A stretch of DNA of 26,579 bases, from UHGV virus genome UHGV-1484038; one strand, written 5' to 3'. The position numbers and the translations under genes were made by a program. Of this stretch, positions 509-2,913 are shown piece after piece. The first letter of the stretch is position 1. Every line of letters begins with the position of its first letter. A model generated the notes under the pieces. The model saw only the letters and a program-made list of their open reading frames with translations. It did not search any database and was not told where the DNA came from. The stretch is from a virus.

Positions 509-693
509 ACGCCACGATTCAAACGATACCAGAGCTTCTTATCCAGACACGAGGCAATCAGACCGAAGTGGCGAGGATGCTTTCCTGCGCAAGAGGAACA
601 GTGCTCAAGTACAACAGAGACAGCAAAGGCGAGCGTCACGCAATAGTTAACGGCGTCCTGATGGTCACGCCAGGCAAAAAGGGAAGACGATGA
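505..693 (+). CDS. ninH: NinH-like small protein
   Basis: 62-aa ORF resembling lambda NinH as I recall it (…TIPELL…GNQTEVARML.C.RGTV.KY…HAIVNGVLMV). ATGA start/stop overlap with rusA and with Q. Confidence 0.7.
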   Translation: MNATIQTIPELLIQTRGNQTEVARMLSCARGTVLKYNRDSKGERHAIVNGVLMVTPGKKGRR

Positions 694-1313
694 GACTCGA
701 AAGCGTAGCTAAATTTCATTCGCCCAAAAGCCCGATGATGAGCGACTCACCACGGGCTACGGCTTCTGACTCTCTTTCCGGTACTGATGTGATGGCTGCT
801 ATGGGGATGGCGCAATCACAAGCCGGATTCGGAATGGCTGCATTCTGCGGTAAGCATGAACTCAGCCAGAACGACAAACAAAAGGCTATCAACTATCTGA
901 TGCAATTTGCACACAAGGTATCGGGGAAATACCGTGGCGTTGCAAAGCTTGAAGGAAATACTAAGGCAAAGGTACTGCAAGTTCTCGCAACATTCGCTTA
1001 TGCGGATTATTGCCGTAGTGCCGCGACGCCGGGCGCAAGATGCAGAGATTGTCACGGTACAGGCCGTGCGGTTGATATTGCCAAAACAGAGCTGTGGGGG
1101 AGAGTTGTCGAGAAAGAGTGCGGAAGATGCAAAGGCGTCGGCTATTCAAGGATGCCAGCAAGCGCAGCATATCGCGCTGTGACGATGCTAATCCCAAACC
1201 TTACCCAACCCACCTGGTCACGCACTGTTAAGCCGCTGTATGACGCTCTGGTGGTGCAATGCCACAAAGAAGAGTCAATCGCAGACAACATTTTGAATGC
1301 GGTCACACGTTAG
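690..1313 (+). CDS. Q: Late gene antiterminator Q (lambda Q type)
   Basis: 207-aa protein with the Q zinc-binding motif CRDCHGTGR...CGRCKGVGY. From memory it appears essentially identical to lambda Q. Immediately followed by a pR'-like promoter. Confidence 0.9.
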   Translation: MRLESVAKFHSPKSPMMSDSPRATASDSLSGTDVMAAMGMAQSQAGFGMAAFCGKHELSQNDKQKAINYLMQFAHKVSGKYRGVAKLEGNTKAKVLQVLATFAYADYCRSAATPGARCRDCHGTGRAVDIAKTELWGRVVEKECGRCKGVGYSRMPASAAYRAVTMLIPNLTQPTWSRTVKPLYDALVVQCHKEESIADNILNAVTR

Positions 1314-1355: not shown

Positions 1356-1392
1356 TTGACTTATTGAATAAAATTGGGTAAATTTGACCCAA
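1356..1392 (+). promoter_or_regulatory. Late promoter pR'-like with overlapping qut region
   Basis: TTGACT (1356-1361), 17-bp spacer, TAAATT (1379-1384), directly downstream of Q. The sequence TTGACTTATTGAATAAAATTGGGTAAATTTGAC closely matches the lambda pR' region as I remember it. Confidence 0.6.
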
Positions 1393-1417
1393 CGATGGGT
1401 TAATGCCTTCGTTTCAA

Positions 1418-1451
1418 GCCCCGCGGATAACACCGTGGGGCTTTTGCGTTT
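1418..1451 (+). terminator. Candidate intrinsic terminator tR' (end of a short 6S-like late leader RNA)
   Basis: GC-rich hairpin GCCCCGCGG-ATAACAC-CGTGGGGC followed by TTTTGCGTTT, about 30-60 nt downstream of the predicted pR' start. Confidence 0.5.
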
Positions 1452-1488: not shown

Positions 1489-1905
1489 TTAAGGGAGGGT
1501 TTTCATTACGCTATCAATCTCCCTTCCTTCAAATCTTGAAGTCCAGCCGCAGGAGCCGCAATGGTAAGGAAAGTCATCGAACCCGCTACCGACCTGTTTA
1601 AGACAGTTGGGGCAATAAACCGCGCTGATATACCCACCCGCGGGATTTTTTCTAAAGGCCGCACCCATGTGCTCGACAAACTCATCCTTTGCCCGATAAG
1701 CCGCTATTTCCTTCTCAAGTTCTACGTTCTTGGCTTTCGCCTCGGCAAGTTCTGCTATGGTGGCAGCATGGGCTTTTTGAAGTACGTCGATCTGCTCTCC
1801 AATGAAAGCGATGCGCTCGCGCAGGACCTCGTTACTTTGCACAGCAGAAAGCGCGCCGATCCCGTTTTTAAGGGACGCGATAAGTAATCCTACATCCATG
1901 GTCAT
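1489..1905 (-). CDS. Hypothetical protein, N-terminal coiled coil plus C-terminal Cys4 zinc ribbon (cargo/moron gene)
   Basis: 138-aa reverse-strand ORF. Coiled-coil-like AELAEAKAKNVELEKEIAAYRAKDE and C-terminal CPNC...(13 aa)...CGSCG pair. The overlapping + strand ORF (1561-1887) has a much less protein-like translation. The second Met (ATG at 1899-1897) has better Shine-Dalgarno spacing (AGGGA-6 nt-ATG). Confidence 0.6.
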   Translation of the reverse strand: MTMDVGLLIASLKNGIGALSAVQSNEVLRERIAFIGEQIDVLQKAHAATIAELAEAKAKNVELEKEIAAYRAKDEFVEHMGAAFRKNPAGGYISAVYCPNCLKQVGSGFDDFPYHCGSCGWTSRFEGREIDSVMKTLP

Positions 1906-2111
1906 TCCCTAATTGTCTGTGGAATGACCAATTTAGCAATTTCCTTTGTCTGTGGAAAGCAGGGAAACCACGCGCCGGGCGTGGATAAATATCCCGGTAT
2001 TGAATCGACTGTTGGCTGCCGCTTGGCGGCCTTTTTCATTTCAGGCTCACGGGAATCATCCGCTACGTGCTTTGTTGATAAATCCAGCCCGTGAAGCCTG
2101 ACCCTTTTCAA

Positions 2112-2126
2112 ACACACACACACACA
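2112..2126. repeat. (AC)7 dinucleotide microsatellite in the holin 5' leader
   Basis: ACACACACACACACA read directly at 2112-2126, about 30 nt upstream of the holin start codon. Confidence 0.9.
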
Positions 2127-2156
2127 GCGCCATCCGAAAAATCGGAGGTGAGGCCT

Positions 2157-2480
2157 ATGAAAATGCCATACAAACAAGATTTCATCGCTGCGCTACTTGC
2201 CGCCAAGGAGCAGGGTATTGGTGCAATGCTGGCTTTTATCATGGCGTATCTGCGTGGTCGCTATAACGGCGGCGCGGTAACAAAAACGCTAATTGATGCG
2301 CTGATGTGCGCGATGATTGCCTGGTTCGTTCGTGACCTTCTGGACTTTATCGGCCTGAGCAGCAACCTCGCCTACATAGCCAGCGTCTTTATTGGATACA
2401 TCGGCACCGATTCGATCGGCAATCTTATTAAAAAACTTGCAGCAAAAAAGGCGGGAGTTGACGATGCAAACCAGTCCTGA
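2157..2480 (+). CDS. S: Holin, lambda S family (class I), with dual-start Met-Lys-Met motif
   Basis: [39 protein letters not shown]... is highly similar to lambda S as I recall it. Three hydrophobic segments. GGAGG Shine-Dalgarno at 2143-2147. The ORF-track start at 2091 (GTG) is an upstream in-frame extension that I reject. Confidence 0.9.
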
Positions 2481-2913
2481 CGGAATTGCTCTGATAAAAA
2501 AATTTGAAGGTTGTCGGCTGACTGCTTACCCCGACCCCGGAACGGGAGATGCGCCGTGGACCATCGGCTATGGCTGGACCCATCCGGTTGACGGAAAGCC
2601 AGTAAAGCGCGGTATGACTATCGACCAGCAAACCGCTGACAGGCTTCTGAAAACAGGGCTTGTTGGTTATGAGAATGACGTGCTGAAAGTTGTCAGGGTG
2701 AAGCTGACACAAGGCCAGTTCGACGCACTGGTGTCGTTCGCTTACAACGTTGGGTCGCGTGCTCTTTCCACATCTACACTGCTGAAAAAGCTGAATGCTG
2801 GCGATATAAAAGGCGCGGCAGATGAATTTCTGCGCTGGAATAAATCAGGCGGAAAGGTGATGCCGGGGCTCACGAATCGCCGCAAGGCAGAGCGAGCTCT
2901 GTTCCTGTCATGA
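2464..2913 (+). CDS. Endolysin, phage lysozyme (T4/P22 gp19-type muramidase)
   Basis: Translation from internal ATG 2464 ([24 protein letters not shown]...GYG...) with the catalytic E-x8-D/C-x5-T arrangement and C-terminal ...[11 protein letters not shown] typical of P22 gp19-like lysozymes. Overlaps the holin end in a different frame. Confidence 0.85.

Follow-up and report, generated by a model that had tools for sequence, protein, structure and literature searches.

The alternating AC tract in the holin leader of virus genome UHGV-1484038 is a genuine microsatellite. Replication slippage adds and removes its AC units at a faster pace than point substitutions accumulate in the 650 nt around it. 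The tract would represent the expanded core of a conserved, G-free and single-stranded spacer of the late mRNA, located directly 5' of a hairpin that buries the Shine–Dalgarno (SD) sequence GGAGG of a dual-start holin gene. As to function, we see about even chances that the tract is a C/A-rich ribosome standby site or translational enhancer in addition to being a microsatellite, in which case it may tune the translation of both holin and antiholin. All positions given here refer to the window, which is the whole stretch of 26,579 nt that was analysed, and its relevant features are collected in Table 1.

Positions 2112–2125 of the window read ACACACACACACAC and together with the adenine at position 2126 they generate an alternating run of 15 nt. 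Its seven overlapping ACA motifs are situated 18–32 nt upstream of GGAGG. The initial sequence-only reading of the window had located an (AC)7 repeat at this place, had called it rare and had put it about 30 nt upstream of a dual-start holin gene, and all three statements are borne out. The tract ends 30 nt before the first start codon (ATG1 at 2157), and the gene that follows opens with Met1-Lys2-Met3 (ATG at 2157, AAA and ATG at 2163), two in-frame starts with a basic residue between them. The match to the lambda-type holin family of Pfam spans 92 of the 107 residues of the protein, and its homologue is named 'phage holin, lambda family' in RefSeq. According to an analytic expectation under a first-order Markov model of the window, only 0.004 dinucleotide runs of at least seven units, and 0.00008 such runs of AC, should occur by chance. 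The only other run of at least four units in the 26.6 kb is a (CA)4 at position 20055. Related prophage DNA totalling 1.9 Mb contains five runs of 6–7 units, each of which is the AC tract of the holin leader, and nine five-unit runs elsewhere; no dinucleotide run of at least six units was found in it outside the holin leader.

The surroundings of the leader provide the context in which the tract is read. The Q antiterminator drives late transcription through the holin leader, and pR' is presumed to be the start of the long mRNA that carries it. Relatives annotate a promoter and a lambda-like qut site over the stretch that is homologous to pR', and in HK225 a rho-independent terminator is annotated at the position homologous to the first terminator. 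By analogy with lambda, SD1 presumably serves Met1 and thus the antiholin form, and would correspond to the GGGGG of lambda (bioRxiv 10.1101/2025.05.14.654169), while SD2 presumably serves Met3 and the holin form as the analogue of the lambda UAAG. The Rz genes lie beyond the endolysin gene.

Table 1. Features of the late-promoter, leader and lysis-gene region of the window
Feature	Position	Strand	Basis or remark
Q antiterminator gene, 207 aa, lambda-type	690..1313	+	Pfam Antiterm PF03589, E = 6e-58
pR'-like late promoter TTGACT-17-TAAATT	1356..1384	+	Promoter scan
First intrinsic terminator after pR' (tR'-like)	1416..1443	+	Terminator scan, 11-bp stem
138-aa ORF	1489..1905	-	phrog_1244 (unknown function)
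Second intrinsic terminator, stem 2014-2031 and T-run to 2040	2014..2040	+	Terminator scan, fold
SL1, long stem-loop, 13-bp outer stem with one bulge	2041..2101	+	Fold
G-free single-stranded spacer CCCUUUUCAA(AC)7AG	2102..2127	+	Unpaired in MFE and centroid structures
(AC)7A microsatellite	2112..2126	+	Sequence; seven overlapping ACA motifs; alleles n = 2-7 in relatives
SD-sequestering hairpin CGCC-A-UCCGA[AAAA]UCGGAGGUG	2128..2150	+	Folds; dG about -12 kcal/mol
SD1 GGAGG, 8 nt before ATG1, in hairpin 3' arm	2144..2148	+	Sequence, fold
SD2 GAGG, 9 nt before ATG3, largely outside hairpin	2150..2153	+	Sequence; pair probability about 0.66
Lambda-family class I holin, 107 aa	2157..2480	+	Pfam Phage_holin_3_1 (lysis protein S), E = 8.5e-30
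Endolysin, 149 aa, next gene of lysis cassette	2464..2913	+	Pfam Phage_lysozyme, E = 6.4e-48

The 138-residue ORF is oriented against late transcription, lies between pR' and the lysis genes, fills the classic moron slot between Q and S, and is common to phages Louie and HK225. Searches of Pfam and PADLOC with this ORF returned no match; its C-terminus contains a zinc-ribbon-like CPNC...CGSC pattern. Its place between Q and the same holin leader is taken by tRNA genes and a terminator in E. coli and Citrobacter relatives (L003, L212 and L213). These are tRNA-Asn and tRNA-Thr genes, Omnitron carries a tRNA 3' end, and the layout resembles that of Stx-type phages. Neither the tract nor the spacer nor the SD hairpin is matched by Rfam at a permissive E-value. 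Two matches below the gathering thresholds were obtained further upstream on the + strand, one to isrK (RF01394) at 1959–2036 (21.2 bits against a threshold of 50), which covers the full 77-nt model and ends in the stem of the second terminator, and one to isrJ at 1377–1444 (16.3 bits against a threshold of 37). Both are small RNAs of the Salmonella Gifsy-1 prophage, and the likenesses are sub-threshold only. In Gifsy-1, IsrK is encoded just downstream of a Q-like antiterminator and controls the translation of downstream genes (PMC4825925).

Length variation was followed in 178 homologous leaders, taken from IMG/VR viral contigs, phage records, E. coli genomes and species-representative genomes (five Citrobacter and one Kluyvera). 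The SD hairpin and the upstream stem served as independent anchors for collecting them, and a plain-letter scan of viral sequences for an anchor matched 111 contigs. The leaders form three clean series in steps of 2 nt. In the series to which the window belongs, CCCTTTTCAA(AC)nAGCG, four copies have n = 3, four n = 4, nine n = 5 and three n = 6, and n = 7 occurs in the window only; flank variants with a single substitution add one more copy each at n = 3, 5 and 6, all these counts being phylogenetically non-independent. The other two series are TTTTCAT(AC)n with n = 3–4 and TTTCAT(CA)n with n = 3–5. (AC)6 is found in three complete E. coli genomes and (AC)4 in Citrobacter phage Omnitron and in mEp237. 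The modal allele is the short CATCACACACAG and the commonest alleles have a run of 8–9 nt; long alleles are rare and interrupted variants persist (ACACGCAC, which is found in HK225, ACATACAC and CACAAAG).

Several of the leaders can be compared on identical flanks. Phage Louie is 99.5% identical to the window over 1201 nt and carries (AC)5. With zero substitutions over 653 flanking nucleotides, n is 5 in Louie, 6 in E. coli EH09-18-41 and in an IMG/VR contig (L081), and 7 in the window. Tract length differs in 13 of the 43 pairs that have no difference in the flanks. No site in the region changes faster than the tract, a pattern that marks replication slippage. Slipped-strand variation had been anticipated from the window alone, with a comparison of repeat number across related prophages suggested as a check and an invariant length as the outcome that would speak against it. 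Length is not invariant: n = 3–7 occurs on a single flank haplotype. We consider the window to carry the longest allele seen, because a metagenome scan for n of at least 7 followed by the start of the hairpin retrieved only two contigs of unrelated CA-rich DNA. These contigs (Ga0315899_10242904, L214, and Ga0315905_10194187, L215) harbour an extended CA-rich microsatellite region, and ACACACACACACACAGCGCCATCCG, which they have in common with the window, is a chance match. Our literature search found no paper on repeat polymorphism in a holin leader.

Next to this variable tract the leader is structurally uniform, all structures discussed here being thermodynamic predictions. The leader was folded in silico with n = 0–12. 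The fold is unchanged throughout, with a minimum free energy of -48.4 to -48.5 kcal/mol, and the pair probability of GGAGG is 0.96–0.98 independent of n. The pair probability of the tract itself is 0.11 at n = 3 and about 0.05 at n = 7. As the fold is the same at all n, repeat number only lengthens an unpaired stretch. This goes against the suggestion of the sequence-only reading that repeat number would alter leader structure, given that neither the predicted energy nor the predicted sequestration of the SD changes. A role of the tract as a structural switch was rejected on the same grounds. The reading had further placed the tract between a hairpin at about 2017–2040 and GGAGG. The tract indeed lies between the two, yet the stem proper comprises 2014–2031 with a T-run behind it, and the second, larger stem-loop SL1 is inserted between this terminator and the repeat.

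The tract sits 2 nt 5' of the SD hairpin and is predicted to be unpaired, that is, a single strand flanking a structured ribosome-binding site. SL1 forms the 5' border of this single-stranded spacer. Among 50 unique spacers of 14–25 nt the G content is 0.4%, compared with 27.6% in the window, and the spacer looks to be selected to be unpaired. Conservation of the neighbouring structures was assessed in 111 unique leaders. The pairs of the terminator stem covary (GC, CG, AU and GU). SL1 is paired in 107–111 of the 111 and is near-invariant, and it lacks covariation proof for that reason. The SD hairpin is paired in all 111 leaders, with invariant stems, a single G.U to A-U change and a 4-nt loop that occurs as eight different sequences. 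Double-compensatory covariation is absent here because the 3' arm is also constrained as SD. By prediction the SD hairpin would be an upstream stem-loop that controls access of the ribosome to the SD of Met1, as an analogue of the sdi of lambda.

A standby or enhancer function is proposed for the spacer because of published results on CA tails, ACA motifs and holin translation. When (CA)n tails of 6–18 nt are placed directly 5' of a hairpin that sequesters the ribosome-binding site, translation rises with tail length both in vivo and in vitro, reaching a maximum at (CA)8 that is about 11-fold above that of AU tails of equal length (PMC5934652). Toeprints are weaker with (CA)6 than with (CA)8 and the structure of the hairpin is unchanged, which its authors read as ribosome standby, probably through protein S1 (PMC5934652). 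ACA motifs near the SD act as additive translation enhancers in yifK and dppA (PMC3879156). In lambda, a changed efficiency of holin translation shifts the lysis time, and an upstream stem-loop acts as a gate on the SD that serves the antiholin start (bioRxiv 10.1101/2025.05.14.654169). Transferred to the present leader, the 30S subunit would dock on the unpaired CA-rich RNA, probably via protein S1, and would capture the SD when the hairpin breathes. A longer tract would then increase initiation, above all at the antiholin start Met1, which the hairpin gates, and the resulting shift in the amounts and the ratio of holin and antiholin would change the lysis time. The repeat would thus be a graded, heritable tuning element and not an on/off switch, and the likely route of tuning would be the length and the ACA content of the single-stranded standby site, not refolding of the leader. 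By this analogy the AC tract probably helps ribosomes to load at the leader, and its length may set the speed of the lysis clock.

Two observations bear on how far this analogy can be pushed. Firstly, the tract is not a 5'-terminal tail. The only promoter-like site is pR', about 730 nt upstream, and the tract is therefore internal to the mRNA unless the RNA is processed at SL1. SL1 could be a processing or stabilising element that leaves the spacer as a 5' tail. Secondly, natural alleles span 3–15 nt compared with the published range of 6–18 nt, but the spacer has unpaired nucleotides besides the tract. The n = 3 allele already has about 18 unpaired nucleotides and short alleles in general have about 14–18. 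With the single-stranded tail saturating or reaching its optimum at 16–18 nt (PMC5934652), the short alleles are already near this optimum and added units may therefore give little extra effect.

The latter consideration leads to the alternative that carries most weight, namely that the spacer needs only to be unstructured and long enough, that slippage has let a short CACACA core of the ancestor drift in length, and that (AC)7 is noise without measurable effect on holin expression or lysis timing. We lean against this account but give it substantial credence. The allele spectrum, with its dominant short runs, rare long alleles and tolerated interruptions, also fits the neutral birth and death of a microsatellite, the predicted fold is identical at all n, and the unpaired region measures 14–25 nt in every allele, close to saturation of the published tails (PMC5934652). 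However, the advantage of CA over AU tails and the additivity of ACA motifs suggest a role for CA content beyond that of length alone (PMC5934652, PMC3879156). Moreover, dinucleotide runs of 6–7 units are confined to the holin leader in the 1.9 Mb of related DNA, and the CA core persists behind upstream modules that differ.

This retention is part of a wider pattern. A core of ∼45 nt, consisting of the CA tract, the SD hairpin, GAGGC(C)U and ATG (2102–2159 in the window), behaves as a portable mosaic module among the collected loci (L001–L213). It precedes at least three unrelated dual-start holins, which belong to the lambda S family (MKMP), to the P21/HP1 family (MTRMSTIY) and, in one case, to a type starting with MKMH. 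At least five different contexts occur upstream of it, and its junction with the holin is exactly at the ATG. A bolder version of the standby proposal, which we hold to be unlikely, builds on this pattern and treats the tract as a 'rheostat' of lysis timing that is passed on by inheritance. Slippage, occurring far more often than point mutation, would lengthen or shorten, unit by unit, the standby site that feeds Met1, and lineages would rapidly explore antiholin:holin ratios and lysis times without any change in protein. As the same module precedes unrelated dual-start holins, the CA tract plus hairpin would constitute a portable control cassette for the lysis clock. The longest alleles might in addition be targets of GcvB and so couple lysis to the nutrient state.

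GcvB, or another G/U-rich small RNA, has to be considered also on its own account. Region R1 of GcvB could pair with the C/A-rich tract as it does with dppA, oppA, gltI and yifK, so that abundant GcvB would repress holin translation and lysis, the more so the longer the tract. GcvB is known to silence C/A-rich or ACA enhancer elements upstream of the SD (PMC3879156). The duplex energy with R1 of E. coli K-12 goes from -14.0 kcal/mol at n = 3 to -21.3 kcal/mol at n = 7 (an energy of the duplex alone), the n = 7 leader is in the best 3.7% of windows of the phage region, and CAAACACA is perfectly complementary over 8 nt to UGUGUUUG in R1. However, any CA tract could trivially pair with a GU-rich RNA. 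In comparison with composition-matched shuffles, the commonest alleles give p = 0.29–0.51 and n = 7 is borderline (p = 0.044). Duplex energies with the whole GcvB RNA were uninformative, and calculations with R1 only and with shuffles gave no family-wide signal. We regard pairing with GcvB as improbable.

Even less probable is a role at the level of the DNA, where the tract would be a Z-DNA-prone element or a recombination hotspot that marks where the lysis cassette meets upstream modules in a mosaic junction, without any function in the RNA. The upstream sequence does change at or just before the CA tract in several relatives (the Omnitron/L211 type and the L008, L010 and L013 types), and the module joins unrelated holins exactly at the ATG. 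Yet the junctions lie at varied positions upstream and not in a fixed register with the repeat, alleles of 4–8 nt are too short for Z-DNA while short alleles are the most widespread, and the strong depletion of G on one strand only together with the adjacency of the SD hairpin points to a constraint at the RNA level.

Classical on/off phase variation, in which repeat number would change the -35/-10 spacing of a promoter or shift the frame of an ORF, has the unit-step polymorphism on identical backgrounds in its favour, as well as a frame from GTG-2091 that is open into the holin only at n = 4 or 7 (adding 22 N-terminal residues), stops after 16–20 residues at n = 2, 5 and 8 and is out of frame at n = 3, 6 and 9, but it is the least credible of all and already largely refuted, as the sole sigma-70-like match in 1250–2250 is pR' and none covers the tract, GTG-2091 has no SD and falls within the paired 3' arm of SL1, no gene across the tract is annotated in RefSeq, the minus-strand ORFs that cross it are frame-broken between near-identical phages, and the true holin start 30 nt downstream is unaffected by n. 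A repeat in a promoter spacer and a coding or frameshift role were accordingly both rejected. One annotated gene does extend over the leader and the repeat, the 'hypothetical protein' CDS0060 of phage Louie (L001 2103–2330, corresponding to 1902–2177 on the minus strand of the window). It is very likely a spurious call, because its frame is broken by the alleles that differ in 2-nt steps and RefSeq carries no such annotation.

The timing of lysis is among the central life-history traits of a phage, and the rate of holin accumulation determines it in lambda. If the series n = 3–7 on identical backgrounds alters the translation of holin or antiholin, it would be nature's equivalent of the synthetic experiments with CA-tail standby sites and a rare case of a microsatellite that provides graded tuning of expression in an enterobacterial element. 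It would also offer a ready and nearly isogenic system in which translation initiation can be related to lysis timing and its evolvability. If the alleles are neutral, the tract is an unusual but ordinary microsatellite in an otherwise conserved dual-start control module. The element would not startle a specialist; what it provides is a natural, nearly isogenic allelic series with which the length of a standby site can be related to a classic fitness trait.

The closest parallel to the leader is provided by the synthetic CA tails (PMC5934652). In both, a single-stranded (CA)n directly precedes a stable, SD-sequestering hairpin, the tract length is within the 6–18 nt range of steep length-dependence, and in both the hairpin is unaltered by the tract, as probed in the published work and as predicted here. 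The published tails are synthetic and 5'-terminal, and they are attached to an otherwise tail-less hairpin with the ribosome-binding site of the MS2 coat gene, whereas the present tract occurs naturally, inside a long late mRNA that is Q-antiterminated. Furthermore, it is preceded by ten more unpaired G-free nucleotides and a large stem-loop, serves a dual-start gene, is polymorphic and is known from sequence alone. The ACA enhancers of gltI, dppA and yifK (PMC3879156; Sharma et al. 2007 cited therein) share with it the clustering of ACA motifs just upstream of the SD in a G-poor, unstructured context, with four motifs within 15 nt in dppA and seven in the tract of the window. Those are chromosomal transporter genes of fixed sequence with demonstrated GcvB pairing, in contrast to a length-variable microsatellite in which the complementarity of the common alleles to R1 is not above that of shuffles.

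Lambda S has its G-rich Met1 SD inside an upstream stem-loop (sdi), has a weaker SD for Met3, and yields antiholin and holin at 1:2 (see the summary in bioRxiv 10.1101/2025.05.14.654169). The holin of the window belongs to the same Pfam family, likewise has 107 residues and starts with Met-Lys-Met, and its leader repeats the arrangement of a G-rich Met1 SD in the 3' arm of a hairpin with a weaker Met3 SD downstream. The hairpin of the window is longer and is predicted to be more stable (-12.0 kcal/mol versus -9.7 kcal/mol for sdi), and where the 5' flank of lambda S is AU-rich and free of repeats, the leader of the window has the CA tract. Leaders of the window type also serve unrelated class II-type holins of the P21/HP1 family with an MTRM dual start. 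Homology to the S leader of lambda itself was rejected: the architecture is analogous and the sequence is unrelated.

A last comparison concerns loci in which simple sequence repeats (SSRs) control expression. The hif locus of Haemophilus influenzae, with a dinucleotide (TA)n in its promoter spacer, is an SSR contingency locus; for enterobacterial prophages, no use of such switching is known. The holin-leader tract resembles loci of the hif type in being a dinucleotide tract of which the unit number slips and differs between otherwise identical genomes. It is distinguished from them by its location outside both promoter spacer and ORF, by an expected effect that is graded, by its shortness at seven units and by differences that are known between genomes. 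Taken together, the element resembles the combination of a dual-start gate of the lambda sdi type with a standby site or enhancer rich in C and A, and in its mutational behaviour it is a microsatellite that does not occupy the position of a contingency locus.
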